This document shows, piece by piece, positions 2,323-63,950 of a stretch of DNA of 64,000 bases (position 1 is the stretch's first letter; every line of letters begins with the position of its first letter). A model generated the notes under the pieces. The model was not told the origin of the DNA, did not search any database, and saw only the letters and a program-made list of their open reading frames with translations. The stretch is from Bacillaceae bacterium. Lineage in GTDB: Bacteria > Bacillota > Bacilli > Bacillales > Cytobacillaceae. A program made the translations under genes and the position numbers. Where the stretch lies: contig JBEQAB010000016.1 in assembly GCA_041640555.1 (NCBI GenBank), positions 1,224 to 65,223 on the forward strand. The letters run 5' to 3'.

Positions 2323-3786
2323 CTATATATTTAGTCCAATCGAAATATATTTTACTTCCAGAAATTCTTCTAGTCCGTGATGGCCCCCTTCTCGACCTAA
2401 ACCACTTTCTTTATAACCTCCAAATGGTGCTTGTGCCGTTGATGGAAGTCCATCATTTAAGCCGATAATTCCGTATTCAAGTTCTTCACTTATTCGGAAA
2501 GCGCGACTTAAATTTTCAGTGAACACATAAGCAGCTAAGCCGTAAACGGTATTATTGGCTCTTTCTATCACTTCCTCTTCTGTTTGAAAAGTAGCAATCG
2601 CGGCTAGTGGTCCAAAGATTTCTTCTTCCACACACATCATTTGATCATTCACATTTGTAAGGATCGTCGGTGGAAAGAAAAATCCTTCTTTCCCCTCATA
2701 CTTATCTCCTTGATACACAATCTTTCCGCCTTTATGAATCGCATCGTCAAGAATATCCTTTACTTTATTTACCGCTGGTTGGTCAATAAGCGGCCCTATA
2801 TCAATTCCTTCTTCCATACCGTTCCCGATTTTGAGCTTGCTTAGTTCCTTTTTAAAAAGCTCCACAAACGGCTCAAGGATTCTTTCTTGGACGTAAATAC
2901 GATTCGTACAAATACATGTTTGGCCGGCATTACGAAACTTCGAGGCTAGTAGTCCTTTGGCTGCTTTTTCTAGATCTGCATCGTCCATGACGATAAAAGG
3001 TGCATTTCCGCCTAATTCTAGCGAAATCTTCTTCACCGTATCAGCAGCACCTCTCATAAGTACCTTCCCAACTTCAGTGGAACCCGTAAAGGTAAGCTTA
3101 CGAACGCGCGGATCCTTTAACCAAGCATCGCCAATTTCTTTTGATTTTCCAGTTACCACGTTAAACACACCAGCTGGAATGCCTGCTTTTTCTGCTAATT
3201 CTGCTAGTTTCAGAGCAGTTAGAGGCGTTTGCTGAGCTGGTTTCACCACCACCGTACAGCCAGCAGCAAGAGCAGGGGCTACCTTTCTCGTGATCATGGC
3301 CGCTGGAAAATTCCATGGAGTAATGGCTGCAACAACCCCAACCGGTTCTTTTCTAATCAAAATCCGTTTATTTGGATGTGCGGCCGGAATCGTTTCTCCA
3401 TAGATTCTCTTTCCTTCTTCCGCATACCAAGAGAGAAAACTATTGGCATAATTCACTTCACCTATTGCCTCATTTACAGGCTTTCCTTGCTCCATCGTCA
3501 TCACTGTGCCAATTTCGACTTTATGCTCATCAATGAGATGGAACCATTTCATGAGTAGCTGACTGCGTTCTTCTGCCGTTTTTTTGGACCAAGTTTTAAA
3601 CGCTAGATGGGCGGCATCTACAGCAGCCTTTGCTTCCAACGTTCCTCCGTTCGGAATCATCCCGATCACTTCATTGGTTGCGGGGTTCATAACATTGATG
3701 AATGTCTCGCACTCATCCCCGATCCATTGGCCATTAATATACATTTTGTATAACTGCTTTTTTTGAAAAGTGATATTCGAACTCAT
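2323..3786 (-). CDS. gabD: NAD(P)-dependent succinate-semialdehyde dehydrogenase
   Basis: 487-aa ALDH-family ORF directly downstream of gabT; GAGAGGG RBS. Confidence 0.85.
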   Translation of the reverse strand: MSSNITFQKKQLYKMYINGQWIGDECETFINVMNPATNEVIGMIPNGGTLEAKAAVDAAHLAFKTWSKKTAEERSQLLMKWFHLIDEHKVEIGTVMTMEQGKPVNEAIGEVNYANSFLSWYAEEGKRIYGETIPAAHPNKRILIRKEPVGVVAAITPWNFPAAMITRKVAPALAAGCTVVVKPAQQTPLTALKLAELAEKAGIPAGVFNVVTGKSKEIGDAWLKDPRVRKLTFTGSTEVGKVLMRGAADTVKKISLELGGNAPFIVMDDADLEKAAKGLLASKFRNAGQTCICTNRIYVQERILEPFVELFKKELSKLKIGNGMEEGIDIGPLIDQPAVNKVKDILDDAIHKGGKIVYQGDKYEGKEGFFFPPTILTNVNDQMMCVEEEIFGPLAAIATFQTEEEVIERANNTVYGLAAYVFTENLSRAFRISEELEYGIIGLNDGLPSTAQAPFGGYKESGLGREGGHHGLEEFLEVKYISIGLNI

Positions 3787-3801
3787 CTGCTAACCCTCTC
3801 T

Positions 3802-5151
3802 TTATATATATTGGGGAGATAAAACAGCTTCTAAAGATTCTTCTAAGATCAATAATCCTTCATGAAGTTGATCATCTGAGATCGTTAAAGGCATTAATAG
3901 TCTAATCACATTGCCAAAAATCCCTGCGCTGAGTAACAGCAATCCTCTATTGGTAGCCTCTCGAATAATGCTACCAACCAGTTCTTTGTCTGGCTGTTTA
4001 GAAGTCTTTTCTTTTACAATTTCAAACGCACACATCGCTCCTAACCCACGAATGCCATCGACTTGTTCAAATCGATCGGACCATTGTTGAAACTTGTTCA
4101 TTACTGTTCTACCAATCCGTTCCGCTCTTGCATTCAATTGTTCTTCTTCTATGATATCTAGGACAGCAAGAGCAGCTTGACACCCTAACGGACTCCCCGC
4201 ATACGTTCCACCAATTTCTCCTGGCTGGCTTACATTCATAATCTCTTCACGGCCAATCACTCCGCTAATGGGAACACCAGCTGCCATAGACTTCGAGATT
4301 GTGAGAAGATCTGGCTCTACGCCAAAATGTTCAATGGCAAAGTAACGGCCGGTTCGCCCAAAGCCGGTTTGAATTTCATCTGCAATAAATAATATTCCGT
4401 GTTCTTTACAAATAGTATAAACACGCTGCACAAATTCCCGATTGGGAACGATAAAGCCTCCTTCTCCTTGCACTGGCTCCATGACTACTGCTGCAATCGT
4501 TTCTGGAGCGACTTCTGCAAGAAGGAATTGTTCAAACTGTTGGATCATATATTCAGTATACTGTTTTTCATCCATTCCATTTGGCTTCCGATATTCATAT
4601 GGATAAGGAGCTTTATATACCTCAGGTGCAAATGGTCCAAATCCATATTTATAAGGCTTCACTTTACTTGTCATCGTCATCGTCATTAACGTTCGTCCAT
4701 GAAACCCTCTCCTAAACGACACAATTCCTTGTCTTTTCGTATACTTTCGAGCAATCTTCACAGCATTTTCAACTGCTTCTGCCCCACTGTTAAAAAAAGC
4801 CGCTTGTTTGGGAAAACTGCCTGGGGCAAGCTTGGTTAACTTTTCCGCCAACTCGATATATGATTCATACATCATGACATTAAATCCGGTGTGAACAAAG
4901 TGATCCGCTTGATCCTTTATAGCCTGAACAACCTTCGGGTGGGAATGACCAACATTGATCGTTCCAATAGCACCAGCAAAGTCGATAAAAATATTGCCAT
5001 CCATATCCTCAACCAATGCTCCTTCTGCCTTATGAACAAATGCTGCACAGTTATTGCTAATACCTTGTGGAACAACTCTTATCCTTCTATCTAATAATTC
5101 CTTTGATCGTGGCCCTGGGATGGATGTTTTGATTTGAACAAATTGTTTCAT
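3802..5151 (-). CDS. gabT: 4-aminobutyrate--2-oxoglutarate aminotransferase
   Basis: 449-aa class-III aminotransferase with GabT-like N-terminus (SIPGPRS..., GAIGTINVGHSHPKV); AAGGAAGGTG RBS. Confidence 0.85.
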   Translation of the reverse strand: MKQFVQIKTSIPGPRSKELLDRRIRVVPQGISNNCAAFVHKAEGALVEDMDGNIFIDFAGAIGTINVGHSHPKVVQAIKDQADHFVHTGFNVMMYESYIELAEKLTKLAPGSFPKQAAFFNSGAEAVENAVKIARKYTKRQGIVSFRRGFHGRTLMTMTMTSKVKPYKYGFGPFAPEVYKAPYPYEYRKPNGMDEKQYTEYMIQQFEQFLLAEVAPETIAAVVMEPVQGEGGFIVPNREFVQRVYTICKEHGILFIADEIQTGFGRTGRYFAIEHFGVEPDLLTISKSMAAGVPISGVIGREEIMNVSQPGEIGGTYAGSPLGCQAALAVLDIIEEEQLNARAERIGRTVMNKFQQWSDRFEQVDGIRGLGAMCAFEIVKEKTSKQPDKELVGSIIREATNRGLLLLSAGIFGNVIRLLMPLTISDDQLHEGLLILEESLEAVLSPQYI

Positions 5152-11057: not shown

Positions 11058-12356
11058 TCATATTTTGATCCAGCCACGAAGCTGTGACGTTTCTGCTAAA
11101 GCCTGAATCCCCACGATATAAGCAGCTACTTTTAAGTTTGTACGATACTTTTTACTCACATGGAGGATTTGATCAAAGCTGGTTTCCATTATTTCTTTTA
11201 GTTTTTCATCGACCTCTCGCTCCGACCAATAATATCCTTGATTGTTTTGACACCATTCAAAATAAGAGACAATCACTCCTCCTGAATTTGCTAATATGTC
11301 TGGTACCAAAAGGATCTCCTTTTCCTCAAGTATGTTTATCGCTTGCTTGGTGGTCGGTCCATTCGCTGCTTCAAGTACAATTTGACATTTTATCTTTTCA
11401 GCATTACGTATCGTAATCTGACCACCTAGGGCTGCCGGAACAAGGACGTCACACTCTTTTTCTAGTAATTCTTGATTCGAAATCGTGTTCTTAAATAGAG
11501 TCGTTACTACTCCAAAGGAATCCCGACTATCCATTAAATACGGGATATCTAAGCCCTTTTCATCATAGATTCCACCTAGCACATCAGAGATGCCGACGAT
11601 CTTCGCTCCTAACTCATACAAGTACAATGCCAAATGACTTCCTACATTTCCAAAGCCTTGAATGATAATTTTTAAATCTTTTATGGGAAGCTTCTTTACT
11701 TCTAACACCTTTTGAAGTGTATATAGTAATCCCTTTGATGTAGCCGTTTCACGTCCTTTAGAGCCCCCTAGAGCAACAGGCTTTCCGGTTATAAATCCTG
11801 GATTATCAAACTCACGAATGAAGTTGTATTCATCAAGCATCCAAGCCATAATCTGTGAATTCGTATATACATCGGGCGCTGGAATATCCTTCGTTGGTCC
11901 TACGATTTGGCTAATCGCTCTCACATAGCCTCGGCTTAACCGTTCCAGCTCTTCTAAGCTCATTGTTCGAGGATCACACACAATTCCCCCTTTTGCCCCT
12001 CCATAAGGAAGACCTGTAATTCCACATTTCATGCTCATCCAACCAGCTAAGGCTTTCACCTCTTCTGGTGTAACGTCTGTATGAAATCGAATGCCACCTT
12101 TAGTTGGACCTGTCGCATCATTATGCTGAGCACGAAAACCCCGAAAAATCTTGGTCGTGTGATCATCCATGCGAACAGGGATTTTCACCTCGAGAAAACG
12201 CAATGGTTCTTTTAAAAGCTCAAACACTTCTTTAGGATAGTTTAGAATATCCATCGCTTCTTTTAAGATCGAATGAAATTCTATCAAGGGATTATCTTGA
12301 ATTCCTTCCTTTCTTTCGACCATTTGATTTTTCGACTCCACGATTGAGTCAGCCAT
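11058..12356 (-). CDS. glutamate dehydrogenase (RocG/GudB family)
   Basis: 432 aa Glu/Leu/Phe/Val dehydrogenase; KGGIRFH and GGAKGG motifs; GFGNVG Rossmann motif. Confidence 0.9.
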   Translation of the reverse strand: MADSIVESKNQMVERKEGIQDNPLIEFHSILKEAMDILNYPKEVFELLKEPLRFLEVKIPVRMDDHTTKIFRGFRAQHNDATGPTKGGIRFHTDVTPEEVKALAGWMSMKCGITGLPYGGAKGGIVCDPRTMSLEELERLSRGYVRAISQIVGPTKDIPAPDVYTNSQIMAWMLDEYNFIREFDNPGFITGKPVALGGSKGRETATSKGLLYTLQKVLEVKKLPIKDLKIIIQGFGNVGSHLALYLYELGAKIVGISDVLGGIYDEKGLDIPYLMDSRDSFGVVTTLFKNTISNQELLEKECDVLVPAALGGQITIRNAEKIKCQIVLEAANGPTTKQAINILEEKEILLVPDILANSGGVIVSYFEWCQNNQGYYWSEREVDEKLKEIMETSFDQILHVSKKYRTNLKVAAYIVGIQALAETSQLRGWIKI

Positions 12357-13055: not shown

Positions 13056-13525
13056 GACATCGTTACCTCCTCTTTTTTAAGTTTCCTAACCATTTGTAAG
13101 GAGAAGTAAGCTATCAAATGAAGAGAAAGAAAATATAAAACGTCGTACAACGTATTCCAATTATTTATCTTTGTAATATTAAGAAAGTTACCTATCATCT
13201 TTAATACAAGAAGAATAACCGTTGATAGACCTACGTATATATAAGCCTTTGCATTCACATTGGCTGATTTAACAGCATTTAATGTAATAACAATGATCAA
13301 AGGGATACCCATACTCCGATTGATTAAAAAGGCTGTATAATCCAATGGTTTTCTTGATAATTCAAGAAACTTAAACTCTTCAAATATGATCCAAGACCAG
13401 TTCACGCTTACGATTAAAATAATTAAAAATACAAATATATTCTCAACAAAAGAAAGTGATTTTTTCATTACTGTAAACAATACAATTACAAGCCACGATA
13501 CAAAGAAAAAAAAGACGAATCCCAA
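13052..13525 (-). CDS. hypothetical integral membrane protein
   Basis: 157 aa, multi-TM; TTG start 6 nt after AGGAGGA. Confidence 0.6.
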   Translation of the reverse strand: MGFVFFFFVSWLVIVLFTVMKKSLSFVENIFVFLIILIVSVNWSWIIFEEFKFLELSRKPLDYTAFLINRSMGIPLIIVITLNAVKSANVNAKAYIYVGLSTVILLVLKMIGNFLNITKINNWNTLYDVLYFLSLHLIAYFSLQMVRKLKKEEVTMS

Positions 13526-13700
13526 AATTAATCCTCCTAAAAAGTTTGTGTTTATTTTTCATCAAAATACAGTGATATATGCATTTCTGCATAAAAATGA
13601 AATTTCTCCCACCACTTTATAATTATTATAAATAACCGATATAAATGATACACCATGTCTCTTTTTACAGAGATAGAACTTCACAACAAAGGAGAACCCC

Positions 13701-15755
13701 ATGTTTACCGTACCAAATTCCATCTTCATTCTGGAAAGTGAGTATAACTTTTCACTTGTCATATTATCAATAATTATTGCCTGTAGTGCCTCTTACACAG
13801 CACTTTCTTTGAATGAAAGAATCCAACAAAATAGCTTCTTTCATCGTTTTATTTGGATTGGATTAGCTTCCGTAGCCATGGGCTTTGGCATTTGGTCCAT
13901 GCATTTTATTGGGATGGGCGCAATTAATCTCCCTTTTGATATGCAGTACGACCCTTTTGTAACACTCCTTTCGATTTGCCCTGCCTTAATAGCATCGCTC
14001 TTAGCCTTTTATATAGCGAATCGTCAGAAAAAGAGCATCTTTGCCTTTATTATTTCTGGCGTCATTATGGGATTGGGCATATCAACGATGCATTATATGG
14101 GCATGGCCGCAATGAAAATGGAGGTTCATCATGCCTATAAGCCTGTCATTTTTACTGGATCCATTTTGATAGCAATGACTGTTTCCTTCGTTGCCCTTTA
14201 CATTTTCTCTTCATTGCAACGTCTAATGGACCGTAGATTGATCAAAATCGTGACAAGCTTAATCATGGGCTTAGCGATTTCTAGTATGCACTATACCGGG
14301 ATGGCTTCTGTTGTTTTTTATGTAGATGTTGACACTGTGATTCCTTCAAATCACTCTCATGAAAATCATACATGGATTCTAGTACTTGCGGTTACCATTG
14401 GAACTTCCGTTTTGCTCATTTTATCTAGTTTATCAGGAGCATTGGATCGATACGTTGATTACCGAATGAACTTTTTTGATTCATTAACGAAGCTTCCGAA
14501 CCGACGTCAGTTTGAAAGGACCATTCATCAACTCTTACATGCTAATACAGTAGCTGTTCTTCATATTCATGATCTAGAAAAATGGAATATTGGATATGGA
14601 TACAAATTTGGAGATAGAATTCTTACTGAAGTAAGTCAGTTACTATCGCAGTTAAATTCCACTTCTTTAGAGGTGTATAGAGTAGAAGGAAACCGCTTTG
14701 CTTTCATTTGTAAGGAAGAATCAAATGAAAGACTCAAATTAACATTAGAGAGAGTTTCCTCTATTTTAAAAGTTCCCTTACAATTCGATGACCATACTGT
14801 TCTTGTTAATACCGTCTGTGCTATAGCTGTTAAGGAAAACAATGAAACCGCAAGCCAGCTTTATGCTAATACGGTTGCAGTCCTGCATCACCCCTCAATC
14901 GAGTATAATAATCAAATCATTGAGTATGATCCGAAGATCCATACGTATAACTTTGAACAGCGCCTCTTGTCTGATATTGATTTGGCTATGGAGAAAGATC
15001 ATTTGTATATCGTGTATCAACCAAAAATTAATGCTTCTTCCCAGGAAATCTCCGGTGTCGAAGCACTCATTCGATGGAATCACCCGGTTCATGGGTTTCT
15101 ATCACCCGGTCTGTTTATTCCAGCATTAGAGAAAAGTGGAAAAATGTTTGATGTGACTGATTGGGTCATTGATAAAGTATGTCAGCAGCTCAATCAGTGG
15201 AATAAAGACGGTCATCCCGTATTACACGTAGCCATTAATATTCCTGGCACCTATATCACATCAGCAAGGCTGTTAAAAACTCTTAATCATTGTGTGGAAA
15301 AGTATCATATATTGGCTAAAAATCTCGAACTAGAAATCACTGAAACAAGCGTTGTAAGCGATATCGAAAACGCGATACGGGCAGTAGGAGACATACGAAA
15401 ACAAGGGTTTTCTGTAGCTCTTGATGACTTTGGTACAGGGGTTTCCTCATTGTCGTATTTAAAAAGATTACCCATTTCCACGTTAAAAATTGATAAATCC
15501 TTTGTAGACGGTGTACCAGAGTCTAAAAAAGAGTCGGCGATTATTACCGCTATCGTCTCTCTCTGTCATTCATTGGACATTGAAACCGTCGTTGAAGGGG
15601 TAGAAAATGTGAAACAGTTCAACTATTTAACCTCCCTGCCAAAGAGCCCAACCATTCAGGGCTTCTATTTTGCAAAACCAATGAAACAAGAGGAACTGAT
15701 CTCTTGGATGAACCAGTTCCATTTGCAATGTGATGAAGTTACACCTTCTTTATAA
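13701..15755 (+). CDS. MHYT sensor - degenerate GGDEF - EAL protein (c-di-GMP phosphodiesterase type)
   Basis: 684 aa. Three MHYT-type motifs (MHFIGM, MHYMGM, MHYTGM) in TM helices. GGDEF site replaced by EGNRF. EAL-domain motifs EALIRW, ELEITE, DDFGTG, KIDKSF, EGVE. Confidence 0.85.
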   Translation: MFTVPNSIFILESEYNFSLVILSIIIACSASYTALSLNERIQQNSFFHRFIWIGLASVAMGFGIWSMHFIGMGAINLPFDMQYDPFVTLLSICPALIASLLAFYIANRQKKSIFAFIISGVIMGLGISTMHYMGMAAMKMEVHHAYKPVIFTGSILIAMTVSFVALYIFSSLQRLMDRRLIKIVTSLIMGLAISSMHYTGMASVVFYVDVDTVIPSNHSHENHTWILVLAVTIGTSVLLILSSLSGALDRYVDYRMNFFDSLTKLPNRRQFERTIHQLLHANTVAVLHIHDLEKWNIGYGYKFGDRILTEVSQLLSQLNSTSLEVYRVEGNRFAFICKEESNERLKLTLERVSSILKVPLQFDDHTVLVNTVCAIAVKENNETASQLYANTVAVLHHPSIEYNNQIIEYDPKIHTYNFEQRLLSDIDLAMEKDHLYIVYQPKINASSQEISGVEALIRWNHPVHGFLSPGLFIPALEKSGKMFDVTDWVIDKVCQQLNQWNKDGHPVLHVAINIPGTYITSARLLKTLNHCVEKYHILAKNLELEITETSVVSDIENAIRAVGDIRKQGFSVALDDFGTGVSSLSYLKRLPISTLKIDKSFVDGVPESKKESAIITAIVSLCHSLDIETVVEGVENVKQFNYLTSLPKSPTIQGFYFAKPMKQEELISWMNQFHLQCDEVTPSL

Positions 15756-18651: not shown

Positions 18652-18817
18652 TCCCTCCAGAATTTTTATAAACCATCATATGCCTCTGGGTAAAAAAAGT
18701 ACTTTGAATTACAGAATTAATATCATTGACACAATCACTAAATACTTGAACTAAAGCAATCTATGTTATATTCAAGATATAGTTTTTAGAGATACGGTAC
18801 ACGGAGGAGGATTGAAT

Positions 18818-19645
18818 ATGAAATTTATTGTAGAGAAAGAATGGGTTCTTAAGAATCTGAATCAAAGCGATGTAAGAGTGATCGATTGCCGCTTTGCACT
18901 TGCAAACCCTGAATTAGGAAAGCTAGAATACGATCAAAATCATATTCCAGGAGCCATTTATTTTGACTTAGAAAAGGACCTTTCAGGACAAGTGGGTATT
19001 CATGGTGGAAGACACCCTCTTCCCGACATAAACCAATTAAAAGAGAAACTTGAAATGGCAGGTATTGATCAGGATACAATCATTGTCGCCTATGATAACG
19101 GAGAAGGAGCCTATGCAGCTAGGTTTTGGTGGATGTTATCTTACCTTGGACATAAAAAAGTATATGTACTTGATGGAGGGTATAAAAATTGGACAAAAGC
19201 CAATTACCCAACTACAGCTGATGTACCTGTTTTTGAAAAGTCAAATTTCCATGTCGACCTACAGCCTGGTTTATTGGCAGACGTAAAAGAGGTACAAGAA
19301 GTGGTATCTGGTAAGAATACAAACACCGTATTAATTGACTCCCGTGAGAACAAAAGATACTTGGGAATAGAAGAGCCCATTGATAAGAAGAAAGGCCATA
19401 TTCCAGGCGCTATTAATAAGCCTTGGATGGAAGGACTTCATGAGGGGTATTACCATTCAACAGAAAATCAAAAAGAGAGATTTTCAGATATAGAGCCTGA
19501 TAAGGAACTGATCGTTTATTGTGGGTCGGGAGTAACTGCCGTTCCGAACTTCCTAGCATTAAAAGAAGCCGGCTTTGAACATGTTAAATTGTATCTAGGA
19601 AGCTTTAGCGACTGGATTTCATATGAAGACAATGAAATAAATTGA
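18818..19645 (+). CDS. thiosulfate/3-mercaptopyruvate sulfurtransferase (tandem rhodanese domains)
   Basis: Two rhodanese domains, active-site loop YCGSGVTA. ATG 18818 lies 7 nt after GGAGGAGG. Confidence 0.8.
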   Translation: MKFIVEKEWVLKNLNQSDVRVIDCRFALANPELGKLEYDQNHIPGAIYFDLEKDLSGQVGIHGGRHPLPDINQLKEKLEMAGIDQDTIIVAYDNGEGAYAARFWWMLSYLGHKKVYVLDGGYKNWTKANYPTTADVPVFEKSNFHVDLQPGLLADVKEVQEVVSGKNTNTVLIDSRENKRYLGIEEPIDKKKGHIPGAINKPWMEGLHEGYYHSTENQKERFSDIEPDKELIVYCGSGVTAVPNFLALKEAGFEHVKLYLGSFSDWISYEDNEIN

Positions 19646-19680
19646 ATGTGAAAAGTCTATAAAATAGTGTGAATCTCCCA

Positions 19681-20475
19681 TGGATTTGGACACTCAAAGG
19701 CATTTTCTACTCATGTCTTGTCTGAATACTCTCTGGATTTCGGACTTCCAAAGGCAATTTCCTTCAAGTCTTGTCCGAATACCCCATGGATTCGGACACT
19801 CAAAGGCAATTTCTACTCATGTCTTGTCCGAATACCCTCTGGATTTGGACTTCCAAAGGCAATTTCCTTCAAGTCTTGTCCGAATACCCTCTGGATTCGG
19901 ACTTCCAAAGGGAATTTCCTTCAAGTCTTGTCCGAATACCCTCTGGATTCGGACTTCAAAGGTAATTTCTACTCATGTCTTGTCCGAATACCCTCTGGAT
20001 TCGGACTTCCAAAGGCAATTTCCTTCAAGTCTTGTCCGAATACCCCATGGATTCGGACACTCAAAGGCAATTTCCTTCATGTCTTGTCCGAATACCCTCT
20101 GGATTCGGACTTCCAAAGGGAATTTCCTTCAAGTCTTGTCCGAATACCCTCTGGATTCGGACTCCAAAGGCAATTTCTACTCATGTCTTGTCCGAATACC
20201 CTCTCGATTCGGACTTCCAAAGGCAATTTCCTTCAAGTCTTGTCCGAATACCCCATGGATTCGGACACTCAAAGGCAATTCCTACTCATGTCTTGTCCGA
20301 ATACCCTCTGGATTCGGACTTCCAAAGGCAATTTCCTTCATGTCTTGTCCAAATACCCCATGGATTCGGACACTCAAAGGCAATTCCTACTCATGTCTTG
20401 TCCGAATACCCCATGGATTCGGACACTCAAAGGCAATTTCTACTCTTGTCCAGTCTGAATACCCTTGGATTTCAC
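19681..20475 (+). repeat. array of ~15 tandem 52/53-bp repeats
   Basis: Unit starts at 19681, 19734, 19787, 19840, 19892 and onward. Consensus TGGATTCGGACTTCCAAAGGCAATTTCCTTCAAGTCTTGTCCGAATACCCTC with internal ATTCGGAC/GTCCGAAT inverted repeat. Two interleaved variants. Confidence 0.95.
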
Positions 20476-20498
20476 TAGTTAGCTTGCTTTATACTATT

Positions 20499-20807
20499 TT
20501 ATTCACTTTTTTGTTGTGCTAATTGAAGGGCTGTATCTGATGCGGTAAAATCAACCGTTAATTGTTCGCTCAAGTTATGAGGATGATAAAAACCTCTTGA
20601 AACCATATAGTTTGTAATATTTTCATGAGTTTGGATTGCAGACCGCAAATGTTCTCTTAAAACAGACCGTAATTCAGGAGTAGCAGCCTCCGTAATAGCC
20701 ACTGTATAATTTCTCACCCCCGCTTTGGCAGAAATCAAGAAATCTGTCGCTATCACCTGATCCGTTAATCCACCCATACCCACCATATTTTGAATCAAAT
20801 CGTTCAT
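20499..20807 (-). CDS. CotF-family spore coat protein (B. subtilis YraD-like)
   Basis: 102 aa. DFLISAKAGVRNYTVAITEAATPELR is a typical coat-F motif; ATGA overlap with upstream gene. Confidence 0.75.
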   Translation of the reverse strand: MNDLIQNMVGMGGLTDQVIATDFLISAKAGVRNYTVAITEAATPELRSVLREHLRSAIQTHENITNYMVSRGFYHPHNLSEQLTVDFTASDTALQLAQQKSE

Positions 20808-21010
20808 TTCTGTTCCTCCCTATTGTTTAAAAATTGCTGTAACTCTTTAACCTGTTGCTGACCTGCAATCATATCATTTGTCAGAATTGCTTTTAAATCC
20901 TCATCTTGAGCTAACGCACTCATGGTCGTTGATTTCGTTAAACTGATGCTTTTAAAAGTCAGGAGCTCATGAACATCCACCGTCTCATGTAACCCTAAGT
21001 ATTTAACCAT
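20804..21010 (-). CDS. small spore-coat-associated protein (YraE-like)
   Basis: 68 aa from ATG 21010 (AAGGAG RBS); LHETVDVHELLTFK motif shared with the paralog at 21151. Confidence 0.65.
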   Translation of the reverse strand: MVKYLGLHETVDVHELLTFKSISLTKSTTMSALAQDEDLKAILTNDMIAGQQQVKELQQFLNNREEQK

Positions 21011-21150
21011 CCTTTTCACTCCTTTTCATTCATATTGGCACTTTTATATTTTCAAACAGATACCTACTATTCATTCGTAATATTTATCAGAAGGAGCATA
21101 AAAGAAATTAAAATATGGAGAAAATAAGGATTAGAAACGGAGGTGTTTGT

Positions 21151-21360
21151 ATGAACAACGAGAGTTTAGCCATACATGAAACATTAGAAACTCACGAAAT
21201 TATTAACTTTAAAACGGTTAGCTTATTAAGATCAAAATTAATGATGGGTATTTGTTTTAATAATGAGTTAAAGCAATTAATGGCCAAGAATGTGGAGCAA
21301 TCCATTCAGGATATCAATGAATTAATTCCTTTCTATAAACAAAGTGACATACTTCATTAA
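21151..21360 (+). CDS. small spore-coat-associated protein (YraG-like)
   Basis: 69 aa from ATG 21151 (GGAGGTG RBS); IHETLETHEIINFK motif. Confidence 0.65.
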   Translation: MNNESLAIHETLETHEIINFKTVSLLRSKLMMGICFNNELKQLMAKNVEQSIQDINELIPFYKQSDILH

Positions 21361-21375
21361 ACTGGAGGTGAAAAG

Positions 21376-21735
21376 ATGCAAGATTATTTAGACCCAAGAA
21401 ACGCTGAGGGTATGCCGAATTTAGCCGACTCAACCTTCGCGATGGATTTTTTATTATCCGTTAAAAATGGTATTCGAAATTATGGATTCGCGATTACAGA
21501 AACCGCAAGTCCTGAACTAAGAAGAGTATTAACAAAACAACTTGAGGCAGCCATTGATTTGCACGGAGAGATTTCTGAATTAATGATCAAAAATAAGTGG
21601 CTCCATCCTCATGACTTCAAAGAGCAATACAAGGTCGATATGAAAGGCGCAGAAACCGCTGTTCAAATTGGACAAATGGAGCTTTTCCCATTAGATACAG
21701 ACAGAGGCGGCATGTTTGCCACACCTAATCAATAG
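21376..21735 (+). CDS. CotF-family spore coat protein (YraF-like)
   Basis: 119 aa; DFLLSVKNGIRNYGFAITETASPELR motif; GGAGGTG RBS. Confidence 0.75.
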   Translation: MQDYLDPRNAEGMPNLADSTFAMDFLLSVKNGIRNYGFAITETASPELRRVLTKQLEAAIDLHGEISELMIKNKWLHPHDFKEQYKVDMKGAETAVQIGQMELFPLDTDRGGMFATPNQ

Positions 21736-56494: not shown

Positions 56495-56660
56495 TATAAA
56501 AAACCTCTCCAGAAAAGAGAGGTTTCATCACAAAAGAAGGACTACTCCTCTCTTATCTCTCAAAACAAAATCTTGTTTTGCAGGATTTAGCACCAATTCC
56601 ATTTTGGAACGGTTGCTGGGCGTCATAGGGCCAGTCCCTCTGCCACTCTTGATAAGAGAA
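56495..56660 (-). promoter_or_regulatory. SAM-I (S-box) riboswitch with terminator
   Basis: Minus strand CTCTTATCAAGAGTGGCAGAGGGACTGGCCCTATGACGCCCAGCAACC...GGTGCTAAATCCTGCAAAAC...GAGAGATAAGAG. It is followed by the AAACCTCTC-ttttctg-GAGAGGTTT hairpin and T6. Confidence 0.9.
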
Positions 56661-61442: not shown

Positions 61443-61449
61443 TTTTTTA

Positions 61450-61523
61450 CGCGCCTTAGAGGATTCGAACCTCTGACCGTACGCTTAGAAGGCGTATGCT
61501 CTATCCAGCTGAGCTAAAGGCGC
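61450..61523 (-). tRNA. tRNA-Arg(TCT)
   Basis: Cloverleaf read by hand: GCGCCTT acceptor, anticodon loop CTTCTAA, GGTTCGAATCC T-arm; CCA not encoded. Confidence 0.9.
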
Positions 61524-61533
61524 ATCTATATAG

Positions 61534-61624
61534 TGGCGGAGAAGGAGGGATTTGAACCCTCGCGCCGGTTACCCGACCTACACCCTTAGCAGGGGCGCCT
61601 CTTCAGCCTCTTGAGTACTTCCCC
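61534..61624 (-). tRNA. tRNA-Ser(GCT)
   Basis: Anticodon loop CTGCTAA, long variable arm, encoded CCA. Confidence 0.9.
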
Positions 61625-61637
61625 ATAGACATAAAAA

Positions 61638-61712
61638 TGGCTCCGCAGGTAGGACTCGAACCTACGACCGATCGGTTAACAGCCGATTGCTCTACCACTG
61701 AGCTACTGCGGA
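61638..61712 (-). tRNA. tRNA-Asn(GTT)
   Basis: TCCGCAG acceptor, loop CTGTTAA, CCA encoded. Confidence 0.9.
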
Positions 61713-61745
61713 ACATTGAAGAATTATTTTAATAGGGTAAAAACA

Positions 61746-61822
<77 letters not shown>

Positions 61823-61827
61823 CTATT

Positions 61828-61901
61828 TGGAGCGGGTGATGAGAATCGAACTCACGACATCAGCTTGGAAGGCTGAGGTTTTACCATTAAACTACACCCG
61901 C
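61828..61901 (-). tRNA. tRNA-Gly(TCC)
   Basis: GCGGGTG acceptor, loop CTTCCAA, CCA encoded. Confidence 0.9.
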
Positions 61902-61912
61902 AAATATAAAAT

Positions 61913-61986
<74 letters not shown>

Positions 61987-61990
61987 ATAA

Positions 61991-62062
61991 CTGGGCTAGC
62001 TGGATTCGAACCAACGCATGACGGAGTCAAAGTCCGTTGCCTTACCGCTTGGCTATAGCCCA
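61991..62062 (-). tRNA. tRNA-Gln(TTG)
   Basis: TGGGCTA acceptor, loop CTTTGAC; CCA not encoded. Confidence 0.9.
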
Positions 62063-62081
62063 ATGAAAAAATTATAAATAA

Positions 62082-62158
62082 TGGGGCGACTGATGGGAAT
62101 CGAACCCACGAATGTCGGAACCACAATCCGATGCGTTAACCACTTCGCCACAACCGCC
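62082..62158 (-). tRNA. tRNA-His(GTG)
   Basis: Extra G-1, loop ATTGTGG, CCA encoded. Confidence 0.9.
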
Positions 62159-62162
62159 ATAA

Positions 62163-62246
62163 TGGTGGAGGGGGACGGATTCGAACCGCCGAACCCAAGG
62201 GAGCGGATTTACAGTCCGCCGCGTTTAGCCACTTCGCTACCCCTCC
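62163..62246 (-). tRNA. tRNA-Tyr(GTA)
   Basis: GGAGGGG acceptor, loop CTGTAAA, long variable arm, CCA encoded. Confidence 0.9.
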
Positions 62247-62276
62247 ATATAGAAATTATATGAACATTAAAATGAA

Positions 62277-62352
62277 TGGTGGCTCAGGACGGATTCGAAC
62301 CGCCGACACAAGGATTTTCAGTCCTTTGCTCTACCGACTGAGCTACTGAGCC
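62277..62352 (-). tRNA. tRNA-Phe(GAA)
   Basis: GGCTCAG acceptor, loop CTGAAAA, CCA encoded. Confidence 0.9.
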
Positions 62353-62449
62353 ATATTTATTATAGTACCCTAGATACAGTTTTGCTTCGTCCTTCGTCCC
62401 GATTTTCAAATCGGTACGCTGGGTGCAATTTCTGTGAAGCTTATTCATC

Positions 62450-62476
62450 GTGCTCTACCGACTGAGCTACTGAGCC
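62450..62476 (-). pseudogene. tRNA-Phe 5' fragment (acceptor + D-arm), copy 1
   Basis: GGCTCAGTAGCTCAGTCGGTAGAGCAC is identical to nt 1-26 of the intact gene, then diverges into GATGAATAAGCTT. Confidence 0.85.
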
Positions 62477-62573
62477 ACAAATATTATTATACCCTAGATA
62501 CAATTTTGCTTCCTCCTTCGTCCCGATTTTTCAAATCGATACGCTGGATGCAATTCTAAGAAGCTTATTCATC

Positions 62574-62600
62574 GTGCTCTACCAACTGATCTACTGATAC
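62574..62600 (-). pseudogene. tRNA-Phe 5' fragment, copy 2 (degenerate)
   Basis: GTATCAGTAGATCAGTTGGTAGAGCAC, about 5 substitutions relative to copy 1. Confidence 0.8.
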
Positions 62601-62608
62601 ACATAAAA

Positions 62609-62684
62609 TGGCGGTCCCGACCGGGATCGAACCGGCGATCTCCTGCGTGACAGGCAGGCATGTTAACCGCTACACCACGGGACC
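62609..62684 (-). tRNA. tRNA-Asp(GTC)
   Basis: GGTCCCG acceptor, loop CTGTCAC, CCA encoded. Confidence 0.9.
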
Positions 62685-62717
62685 AAAAATTTTTCAATTT
62701 TATTTGAAAAATTTAGA

Positions 62718-62791
<74 letters not shown>

Positions 62792-62829
62792 ACGATATTA
62801 TAAGAAAAAGCTATATTGCATTTAAAAAA

Positions 62830-62922
62830 TGGAGGAGGTAGAGGGATTCGAACCCCCGCGCGGTTTGACCCGCCTGTCGGTTTTCAAGACCGATCCCTTC
62901 AGCCGGACTTGGGTATACCTCC
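62830..62922 (-). tRNA. tRNA-Ser(TGA)
   Basis: GGAGGTA acceptor, loop CTTGAAA, long variable arm, CCA encoded. Confidence 0.9.
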
Positions 62923-62929
62923 GTATCTT

Positions 62930-63006
62930 TGGTAGCGGCGGAGGGGATCGAACCCCCGACCTCACGGGTATGAACCGTACGCTCTAGCCAGCTGAGCTAC
63001 ACCGCC
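62930..63006 (-). tRNA. elongator tRNA-Met(CAT)
   Basis: GGCGGTG acceptor, loop TTCATAC; resembles the B. subtilis elongator Met rather than the Ile2 lysidine tRNA; CCA encoded. Confidence 0.8.
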
Positions 63007-63094
63007 AAAAATAATTCATTAAATTTGTAAAACACATGTTCTTGAATTTAATGAAGATTTTTTCACTACACTACGTTCCGTGAAAAAATCTAAG

Positions 63095-63167
63095 TGGAGC
63101 CTAGCGGGATCGAACCGCTGACCTCCTGCGTGCAAGGCAGGCGCTCTCCCAGCTGAGCTAAGGCCCC
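63095..63167 (-). tRNA. tRNA-Ala(TGC)
   Basis: G3:U70 pair, loop CTTGCAC; CCA not encoded. Confidence 0.9.
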
Positions 63168-63181
63168 ATAATAAAGTTAGA

Positions 63182-63258
63182 TGGTCGGGAAGACAGGATT
63201 CGAACCTGCGACCCCTTGGTCCCAAACCAAGTGCTCTACCAAGCTGAGCTACTCCCCG
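63182..63258 (-). tRNA. tRNA-Pro(TGG)
   Basis: CGGGGAG acceptor, loop TTTGGGA, CCA encoded. Confidence 0.9.
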
Positions 63259-63271
63259 ATTAAAGCTAATA

Positions 63272-63348
<77 letters not shown>

Positions 63349-63459
63349 ATTATTTTTCACTTTGATGTCAAAGTGATAAGGATAGCTATTTTGCTTCGCA
63401 AAAGCTTTGGATATTTTACTTCGTATAAAATGGAACCTATTTTGCTTTGCAAAAAGCTT

Positions 63460-63548
63460 TGGTGCCGAGGACCGGAATCGAACCGGTACGGTAGTCACCT
63501 ACCGCAGGATTTTAAGTCCTGTGCGTCTGCCAGTTCCGCCACCCCGGC
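63460..63548 (-). tRNA. tRNA-Leu(TAA)
   Basis: GCCGGGG acceptor, loop CTTAAAA, long variable arm, CCA encoded. Confidence 0.9.
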
Positions 63549-63560
63549 AAAAGAAGTTCT

Positions 63561-63635
63561 TGGAGCGGAAGACGGGATTCGAACCCGCGACCCCAACCTT
63601 GGCAAGGTTGTATTCTACCACTGAACTACTTCCGC
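63561..63635 (-). tRNA. tRNA-Gly(GCC)
   Basis: GCGGAAG acceptor, loop TTGCCAA, CCA encoded. Confidence 0.9.
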
Positions 63636-63668
63636 AAATGAAAAATTGTTTTCCTAGAGAAAAAACTT

Positions 63669-63753
63669 TGGTGCGGGTGAAGGGAGTCGAACCCCCACGC
63701 CTTGCGGCGCTAGATCCTAAGTCTAGTGCGTCTGCCAATTCCGCCACACCCGC
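63669..63753 (-). tRNA. tRNA-Leu(TAG)
   Basis: GCGGGTG acceptor, loop CTTAGGA, long variable arm, CCA encoded. Confidence 0.9.
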
Positions 63754-63789
63754 AAAAATAATAAGTTATTTTGCTAAAGCAAAAAACTT

Positions 63790-63865
63790 TGGTGAGCCAT
63801 GAAGGACTCGAACCTTCGACCCTCTGATTAAAAGTCAGATGCTCTACCGACTGAGCTAATGGCTC
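63790..63865 (-). tRNA. tRNA-Lys(TTT)
   Basis: GAGCCAT acceptor, loop CTTTTAA, CCA encoded. Confidence 0.9.
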
Positions 63866-63874
63866 GGTATAAAG

Positions 63875-63950
<76 letters not shown>

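Follow-up and report, generated by a model that had tools for sequence, protein, structure and literature searches.

A tandem array of palindromic 52/53-bp units between convergent genes of a Bacillaceae bacterium, apparently one member of a Bacillales-wide family of non-coding repeats

In a 64,000-nucleotide stretch of a Bacillaceae bacterium genome (GenBank assembly GCA_041640555.1, contig JBEQAB010000016.1, positions 1,224 to 65,223; hereafter the window, i.e., the whole stretch of DNA that was analysed), the gap between a rhodanese-domain sulfurtransferase gene and a convergent CotF-domain spore coat gene is occupied by a head-to-tail tandem array, in a neighbourhood of cupin, rhodanese, CotF and ADH genes (Table 1). 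Tandem Repeats Finder (TRF) reported this array with a period of 52, 15.1 copies, 85% matches, 3% indels and a score of 1051, next to a second, higher-order period of 156 bp, and the array takes up 791 bp of the 853-bp gap (93%). A sequence-only reading of this DNA had already described such an array, its unit starts, its unit lengths of 52 or 53 bp, and two interleaved variants with chimeras of them, and this observation was confirmed when the array was split into units; the block-wise duplication it had suggested agrees with the 156-bp period. The pattern ATTCGGAC-N24-32-GTCCGAAT matched the window exactly 10 times and 100 shuffles 0 times, and all 15 occurrences of the 17-mer GTCTTGTCCGAATACCC (at no more than 3 mismatches, with the 64-kb window searched) fell within the array. 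No further array copy was found elsewhere in the 64-kb window by pattern search or nhmmer. The array has a G+C content of 45% (vs. 39% for the window), and its edge units are more diverged than its interior units.

The same reading had placed an inverted repeat around a 27–28-nt spacer in every unit. This inverted repeat is better read across the unit junction, i.e., with a loop of 9–11 nt, and since the conserved palindrome thus spans the junction drawn earlier, the 27-nt segment is a locus-specific linker. The linkage it had claimed for every unit it checked, between the dinucleotide before TGG (TC or CA) and that after GGAC (TT or AC), was kept at 14 of the 15 junctions read directly, the fifteenth reading GGACTC owing to a 1-nt deletion; it arises because the palindrome and its immediate flanks are inherited together, while chimeras break in the middle of the linker. 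An inner AAGG-CAATTT-CCTT mini-palindrome, taken by that reading for a general feature of the spacer, turned out to be restricted to one variant and to be unconserved in other arrays.

Searching with the translation of an open reading frame (ORF) that runs through the array first gave one relative, a metagenome contig with a 53-bp x 12.4 array, and comparison of the two arrays yielded the conserved core GTCCGAATACCC-NNN-GGATTCGGAC. An exact scan for this core in 185,579 species genomes found arrays in Robertmurraya beringensis (3 contigs), Robertmurraya sp. P23, 'Bacillus' coreaensis, 'B.' salacetis (23 copies), Ammoniphilus resinae and an uncultured Bacillaceae bacterium, and an exact-core scan of metagenomes found 12 arrays on low-GC contigs. 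Four high-GC metagenome matches (L023, L027, L032 and L033) were discarded as single terminator-like hairpins that occur by chance and are not arrays. Against 1.84 billion protein representatives, the window ORF gave 170 matches at E <= 1e-3, the named sources of which include Texcoconibacillus, Ammoniphilus and Neobacillus. Public data contain at least 120 distinct arrays, from no fewer than five genera and from two further species that are still classified in Bacillus. DNA read directly shows up to 23 copies, and from the longest family ORF (P0132, 614 aa) probably ~35 or more can be inferred. The window array is apparently one member of a Bacillales-wide and undescribed family of non-coding tandem repeats. 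Literature on the motif, on 52-bp repeats and on Bacillaceae repeats yielded nothing relevant and no description of this family, and the supplement on false CRISPRs (short palindromic repeats, clustered and regularly interspaced) of PMC5294841 held only Ser-Asp coding repeats with similar words. The choice between a single-locus and a dispersed unit, which the sequence-only reading had put up for checking, falls on a multi-locus family, with the unit seen always in arrays.

Several arrays can be present per genome, each with its own linker sequence, and in most loci they lie directly after stop codons. Among the 12 independent loci for which both flanks are known, approximately 7 are convergent (our own tally of ORF orientations, not tool output), where convergent gaps would be expected to make up about one quarter of intergenic regions. 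The orientation of the array relative to its neighbouring genes is mixed: genes on the tail side are directed towards it at 11 of 15 independent loci and those on the head side at 8 of 12, without significant difference (again our own tally).

The ORF through the window array is open because the + strand of the array is nearly without stop triplets. With its 280 codons and a match to Pfam DUF7034 of 49 bits, above the curated cut-off, it might pass for a real repeat protein, just as the superficial repeat-spacer look of the array (25 + 27 bp) might recall a degenerate or orphan CRISPR or a type III toxin-antitoxin (ToxI-like) array. However, the mixture of 52- and 53-bp units, i.e., of frame-shifting 1-nt indels, rotates the frame, other arrays have no long, conserved or consistent ORF, and DUF7034 went unmatched when nine further arrays were translated. 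A Pfam scan of 63 array ORFs returned 34 unrelated families (one member each in the 25 families listed). Each array translation matches a different family, as is typical of repeat artefacts; the E-values of such matches are inflated. That DUF7034 might be a family built from these repeats was rejected, since only the window translation matches it, via summed weak matches. The spurious strong scores of array translations (DUF7034, RACo_linker at 7e-28 and MRP-L51 at 2e-25) likewise arise because many weak repeat matches are summed. Two translations of Texcoconibacillus arrays have been deposited as proteins MBB5173530.1 and MBB5172808.1, one of them named 'chorismate mutase' (a fused ORF).

A CRISPR array was ruled out as well, since the 27/28-nt segments are variants of two closely related sequences, alike within the array and homologous across species. 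PADLOC gave no match for the nine ORFs next to the array, its vicinity lacks cas, toxN and any other defence gene, and the sole Rfam CRISPR-DR match falls outside the units (E = 6.7). A ToxI-like array was excluded because the downstream gene is the convergent CotF-domain gene and PADLOC gave no match. We therefore agree with the sequence-only reading that the array is neither CRISPR nor coding, and leave next to no probability to these three explanations, which are already refuted. That reading had also been unable to assign the unit to a known RNA family, and the cmsearch it proposed indeed returned no Rfam match over the window array, at gathering score or at E values of up to 10; a further 17 arrays with their heads gave none either, and ARAGORN found no tRNA-like gene in the array. 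A plasmid or phage origin was rejected, as blastn against 72,556 plasmids and 50,697 phages was without a match, and a scan of viral contigs returned isolated palindromes only, at chance expectation. A role of the linker as a guide against phages or local genes was rejected, since no linker-complementary site was found in the window or in phages.

The geometry of the unit was kept throughout the family. Among 164 units from 22 arrays, 41 measured 51 nt, 95 measured 52 nt and 26 measured 53 nt, with two exceptions. Since successive copies of a 52-bp repeat are translated in each of the three frames, the DNA of the unit could be rebuilt from array proteins by combining the overlapping frames, a back-translation that reproduces the window unit and is exact for the real DNA of a 52-bp x 22.3-copy array in an hprK-lgt intergenic region (L042). 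Of 150 array proteins, 146 fit a periodic unit at >=80%, the period being 52 in 143 and 53 in 3. Among the 120 rebuilt units with GTCCGAA...TTCGGAC, the loop was 11 nt in 120/120 and the linker 27 nt in 119/120, with loop and linker sequences unrelated between loci. Since the DNA scans preset the loop length and not the linker length, and the protein set presets neither, these length constraints stand.

Some further tandem repeats came up beside these arrays. The metagenome contig L030, which already carries a family array, has a different 52-bp tandem array of 5.7 copies at 13310–13604, the unit of which is a 25-bp hairpin (GTCCTTCAT-CGATGCA-ATGAAGAAC) plus a 27-nt linker; as the 25 + 27 geometry is kept and the arms differ, it may be a divergent sister family. 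Three proteins of 1027–1188 residues (P0128, P0130 and P0153) back-translate to 52/53-bp repeats without GTCCGAA arms (an example being CAGGAC-AGTGGCA-GTC[C/T]TG, for which hand back-translation and computed reconstruction disagree), and their lengths mean that >3-kb arrays of equal period exist in other sequence families. L042 contains other intergenic tandem repeats with 68–70-bp and 136–144-bp units (3340–3867, 11235–11446, 13123–13298 and 15191–15486), and 'B.' coreaensis a 20-bp x 13.6 array (L005:7376–7646).

To compare the parts of the unit, 18 arrays were aligned whole to their own consensus (Table 1). Apart from a CpG in mid-arm, the arm bases were ~10x less variable within arrays than loop and linker. 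The mid-arm CpG is the only variable arm position, varying in 8–12% of units, and shows all four transitions (in the window, e.g., at 19715–19731, 19840–19850 and 20342–20358), on either arm and without strand or wobble (G-U) preference; this variability could stem from cytosine methylation and deamination or from relaxed constraint at this position. Conservation is weaker beyond the arms, i.e., 93% for the T before the 5′ arm and 71% for the A after the 3′ arm, with an A/T-rich linker centre. The 8th pair covaries (62% Watson-Crick vs. 40% expected, z = 6.3) and pairs further out do not, and an outward extension of the stem seen by eye (AGG...CCT, AAAA...TTTT) was unsupported in a shuffle test on 119 arrays. 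The arms are invariant beyond the needs of pairing, so the constraint lies on their sequence and not on pairing alone, and together with the strict geometry this implies a trans-acting factor. Such a factor would most likely be a protein with binding or cutting activity on the palindrome or its hairpin (of 7–9 bp, as the palindrome is predicted to be able to form in single-stranded DNA or RNA), and would maintain the arms and seed new loci.

These same features could be those of arrays of double-stranded DNA sites for a dimeric sequence-specific protein, comparable to the plasmid centromere sopC. A period of 52 bp corresponds to ~5 helical turns and would put successive sites on one face, making cooperative coating or bending possible; both spacings are fixed while the intervening sequence is free; the conservation of the arms exceeds complementarity, with the outer pairs lacking covariation and the 8th showing it in part; and the absence of strand or wobble preference at the CpG, the inconsistent orientation to flanking transcription and the A/T-rich linker centre would all suit DNA. 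On the other hand, several arrays per chromosome sit at unrelated 3′ intergenic sites, their copy number is hypervariable up to complete loss in close relatives, no candidate binding protein was found nearby, the distances between arm centres (18 and 34 bp) are non-integral in helical turns, and the two strands differ in composition, one being C/T-rich. We consider binding arrays of this kind unlikely.

The history of the locus could be followed in relatives. The window has orthologues over cupin, rhodanese, array and CotF (90–96% amino-acid identity) on an R. beringensis contig (L002) and on a contig from a metagenome (L031), with 6 and 6.3 copies as compared with 15 in the window, although copy numbers from short-read assemblies, possibly including the window's 15, are subject to long-read confirmation. 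In a more distant relative (L035), the array is degenerate and reversed in orientation; another (L039) has an empty site with a 47-bp gap and an ordinary terminator, and R. korlensis a different neighbouring gene and no array. At a second locus, adjoining a PhzF gene, four taxa carry 6.7–12.4 units between flanks that are 79–93% identical, and the linkers there diverge in concert. The terminal units of several arrays hold one 'ancestral' linker type regardless of the interior linker, and higher-order periods of 103 to 209 bp are common. Copy turnover, concerted linkers and higher-order periods are signatures of slippage and unequal exchange on a long-lived locus. Local growth and shrinkage would proceed through replication slippage and unequal recombination, to which the 156-bp period of the window array would also be due. 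On L031 (1060–1240, reverse strand), a new rhodanese terminator, AAAAAGCCTTTCCAAAGGCTTTTT, seems by its sequence to derive from an array linker that had mutated, TTCCAAAGGCAATTT.

Such turnover might in turn indicate a neutral minisatellite, i.e., locally amplified junk tolerated at a convergent site, an outcome that the sequence-only reading had tied to an array absent or hypervariable among near-identical strains, with no transcript and no conserved structure. Hypervariability and absence were indeed found, as were higher-order structure and short-read assemblies breaking inside the array (contigs L034, L040, L008, L018, L019, L025 and L003 all end inside family arrays), but the arms and the 11/27 spacing are strongly constrained. 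Besides the low variation of the arms within arrays, arms and exact spacing recur in >100 otherwise unrelated arrays, and arrays are retained at orthologous loci across the divergent flanks of the PhzF locus. The geometry and arm-variation results largely refute a neutral minisatellite, which we consider highly improbable.

In a subfamily comprising Robertmurraya and 'B.' coreaensis, a terminator-like hairpin (AAAATAGCGTGAG-N6-7-CTCACGCTATTTT TCTTTT) stands before one end of the array and is followed by AAACAAAGGAATAT and ~30–90 bp more. This head module is common to non-orthologous loci and to the inverted copy, so array and head moved or were copied as one piece; away from arrays, no head module was found in ~0.45 Mb scanned (window plus fetched loci). 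No convincing sigma-A or sporulation-type promoter was detected in the head region, by eye or by scan. The hairpin is intact at the orthologous R. beringensis locus (AAAATAGTGTGAGAATTGTCTCACGCTATTTT TCTTTT), and the window array begins inside it. Since only its left half is left in the window, the rhodanese terminator was lost. In line with the earlier claim that neither flanking gene has a classical terminator besides the array, a terminator scan found no terminator-like site between the array and either flanking stop codon. The window array would have replaced the rhodanese terminator, and both convergent transcripts would run into ~15 hairpins. This hairpin string probably acts as a 3′-end barrier, in our view as a side effect and not as the reason for the existence of the family.

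Alternatively, the arrays might act as RNA, with read-through or dedicated transcripts forming strings of hairpins with single-stranded 27-nt linkers that serve as a stabiliser or exonuclease barrier in the 3′ untranslated region (3′UTR), as a protein sponge or as a source of 52-nt small RNAs, released by cleavage at every hairpin and supplying a single locus-specific 27-nt sequence in many copies. Single units of the window array fold at –14.7 to –17.1 kcal/mol, on either strand more stably than shuffled sequences (z –2.2 to –3.8), with one unpaired A in the hairpin GTCCGAAT-N9-ATTCGGAC; for perfect repeats, artefactual long-range pairing dominates the minimum free energy folds. Arrays directly downstream of stop codons, the lack of another terminator for both convergent window genes, the compositional asymmetry of the strands, the covarying 8th pair and a fixed repeat-plus-spacer geometry that recalls processed arrays such as pre-crRNA all point in this direction. 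Moreover, two sources (PMC5294841; bioRxiv 10.1101/2023.05.16.541063) report that the 3′UTR repeats known in Staphylococcus as STAR (Staphylococcus aureus repeat) elements are expressed and functionally relevant. Nevertheless, Rfam gave no match, compensatory covariation is confined to one pair and a G-U bias is absent, orientation to neighbouring genes is mixed, the head-bearing subfamily has a terminator between upstream gene and array, no linker-complementary target was found in the window or in phages, and no nuclease gene was associated with arrays in the flanks and neighbours scanned. Folding energies and G-U-compatible arm variants gave mixed results as to which RNA strand is preferred. 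An RNA role of this kind is, in our estimate, distinctly unlikely.

Table 1. Features of the window array and its surroundings, and of the repeat family
Feature	Position in window	Strand	Basis or remark
Rhodanese-domain sulfurtransferase gene	18812..19645	+	stop codon 36 bp before array
Remnant of the left half of the head hairpin (ATAAAATAGTGTGA)	19659..19672	+	alignment with R. beringensis locus
Spurious 280-codon ORF through array	19680..20522	+	in public protein collections
Tandem array, ~15 units of 52/53 bp	19681..20471	+	TRF, pattern searches, unit list, family consensus
First unit, degenerate (GGATTTGGAC ... GTCTGAATACTC)	19681..19733	+	
Last full unit, degenerate (CTTGTCCAGTCTGAATACCC), then partial arm TGGATTTC	20414..20471	+	3′ (tail) end
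CotF-domain spore coat gene	20499..20807	-	convergent with rhodanese gene; stop 27 bp from array end
Gene pair, - strand	20804..21019 with 20499..20807	-	small protein + CotF-domain protein
Gene pair, + strand	21115..21360 with 21376..21735	+	small protein + CotF-domain protein
Window unit: 25-bp interrupted palindrome GTCCGAAT-ACCCNNNGG-ATTCGGAC + 27/28-nt linker			
Linker variants of window array: TTCCAAAGGCAATTTCCTTCAAGTCTT and ACTCAAAGGCAATTTCTACTCATGTCTT			
Family unit: T-GTCCGAA-N11-TTCGGAC-A (25 bp) + 27-nt (+/-1) linker			direct tandem; window units fit
Family core as search pattern: TGTCCGAA-N11-TTCGGAC			
Deviation, 5′ arm non-CpG: 0.9%			from array consensus
Deviation, 3′ arm non-CpG: 1.6%			from array consensus
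Deviation, arm CpG: 8-10%			from array consensus
Deviation, loop: 13%			from array consensus
Deviation, linker: 10%			from array consensus

Elsewhere in the window, the CotF-domain gene next to the array belongs to one of two divergent gene pairs (20499–21735), each encoding a small protein and a CotF-domain protein, an arrangement that suggests the duplication of a two-gene spore-coat module. On the - strand, 22 tRNA genes are clustered at 61449–63950, with a 124-bp x 2.2 repeat between tRNA-Phe and tRNA-Asp (62327–62597), and an S-adenosylmethionine (SAM) riboswitch (S-box leader) was found at 56550–56658 on the - strand with 96.6 bits.

Taken together, we favour, at about an even chance, the reading of the array as a single locus in a family of non-coding repeats that are interspersed in intergenic regions across the Bacillales, of the kind represented by the repetitive extragenic palindromes (REP), their clusters (bacterial interspersed mosaic elements, BIMEs) and STAR. 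The interpretation given in the sequence-only reading is partly supported. Several points weigh against this assignment. A search for solo units outside arrays (unit hidden Markov model, nhmmer), covering the window and ~0.3 Mb of low-GC flanking DNA, found none, and the family has few loci per genome, both in contrast to REP/BIME; no gene is common to the flanks of different loci, where no trans-acting factor was identified; and the arm invariance of the protein-derived set is partly ascertainment and not independent, the matches having been found through translated arms. Furthermore, a hairpin that is simply selfish does not account for two spacings (11 and 27) being so strictly conserved, which fits an ordered structure better. 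The arrays, with a geometry no less strict than that of CRISPR, might be a so far unrecognised, functionally ordered chromosomal class of spore-forming Bacillales that serves a conserved factor, as protein-coated DNA or as precursors of 52-nt small RNAs, and not tolerated selfish repeats, which we regard as rather unlikely. They may then be DNA sites phased every five helical turns, or small RNAs that each carry a locus-specific 27-mer. Sequence-level arm conservation, mixed orientation and the 5-turn period lean towards DNA, strand asymmetry and the position just after stop codons towards RNA.

Should the interspersed family be as widespread as the searches suggest, it would be the Bacillales counterpart of STAR and REP. 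Its invariant arms and exact 11/27 spacing should help to isolate a partner protein or nuclease, a handle that STAR and many REP-like elements have been without for 25 years. The arrays are also a source of annotation errors, with confirmed arrays translated into 'hypothetical proteins' of up to ~600 residues; they break short-read assemblies, and they can be used as variable number tandem repeat (VNTR) markers. In the window, an array in place of a terminator probably shapes the 3′ ends of both convergent genes. If the arrays are an ordered functional structure, be it protein-bound DNA or processed RNA, they deserve far more attention.

Among known systems, CRISPR arrays share the alternation of a ~25-bp palindromic repeat with a ~27-bp segment of fixed length, as well as one polar end (cf. 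the leader-like head) and degenerate terminal units at the other. However, the 'spacers' here are identical within an array, and inherited instead of acquired, the loop of the 'repeat' varies between arrays, and cas genes are lacking. The sopC site of plasmid F consists of 12 tandem 43-bp units, each with an inverted repeat and bound by SopB. It resembles the arrays in these tandem inverted repeats and in a unit length near whole helical turns, but sopC is plasmid-borne, uniform in sequence and confined to a single locus beside partition genes, whereas the arrays are chromosomal and multi-locus, with locus-specific linkers and no partner gene nearby. The mycobacterial interspersed repetitive units (MIRU-VNTR) of Mycobacterium and the pneumococcal boxB arrays are intergenic tandem units of 45–53 bp at several loci, with strain-variable copies, and in unit size, variable copies and dispersal the present family is alike. 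Their sequences are unrelated to it, MIRUs lie inside operons with short overlapping ORFs, BOX elements have boxA and boxC ends, and neither has the strictly spaced palindrome and free linker found here.

REP/BIME elements, known from enterobacteria and pseudomonads together with their REP-associated tyrosine transposases (RAYTs), have established effects on mRNA 3′ ends. Like the units described here, they are extragenic, imperfect palindromes of ~25–35 bp that are capable of forming hairpins and are enriched at the 3′ ends of genes, where they form clusters with fixed linker lengths (BIMEs), and their sequence-specific conservation implies a trans-acting enzyme. Yet REPs occur in hundreds of copies, mainly single or as inverted pairs, and their orientation alternates inside BIMEs, in contrast to the direct tandem arrays that are the sole form observed for the present family, in which no GTAG head was seen.

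STAR elements (Cramton 2000) share with the family an intergenic position at multiple loci, a conserved short motif, locus-specific recurring spacers and a variable repeat number, all of which were found here. A short conserved motif, spacers that are near-identical within a locus and distinct between loci, and tandem units of ~50 nt have been described for STAR (PMC3532100), the loci of which grow and shrink, remain stable inside a lineage and vary from one species to another (Purves et al. 2012, PMC3532100), and the function and spreading mechanism of which are unknown (PMC3532100). STAR-like elements and tandem repeats have moreover been classed as 'false CRISPRs' (PMC5294841), and the present arrays can similarly be mistaken for CRISPR arrays and mis-annotated. 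The STAR motif, on the other hand, is a 14-bp GC-rich direct repeat, T(G/A/T)TGTTG(G/T)GGCCC(C/A), and not a 25-bp interrupted palindrome, and the present family stands apart through its fixed 11/27 spacings, the terminator-like head in one subfamily and its spore-forming Bacillales hosts. The STAR signature motif had 0 matches in the window at <=1 mismatch, and since the conserved element is palindromic, the family is therefore not a STAR member. The STAR element of Staphylococcus, together with REP/BIME, is nevertheless the closest known described analogue of these arrays.

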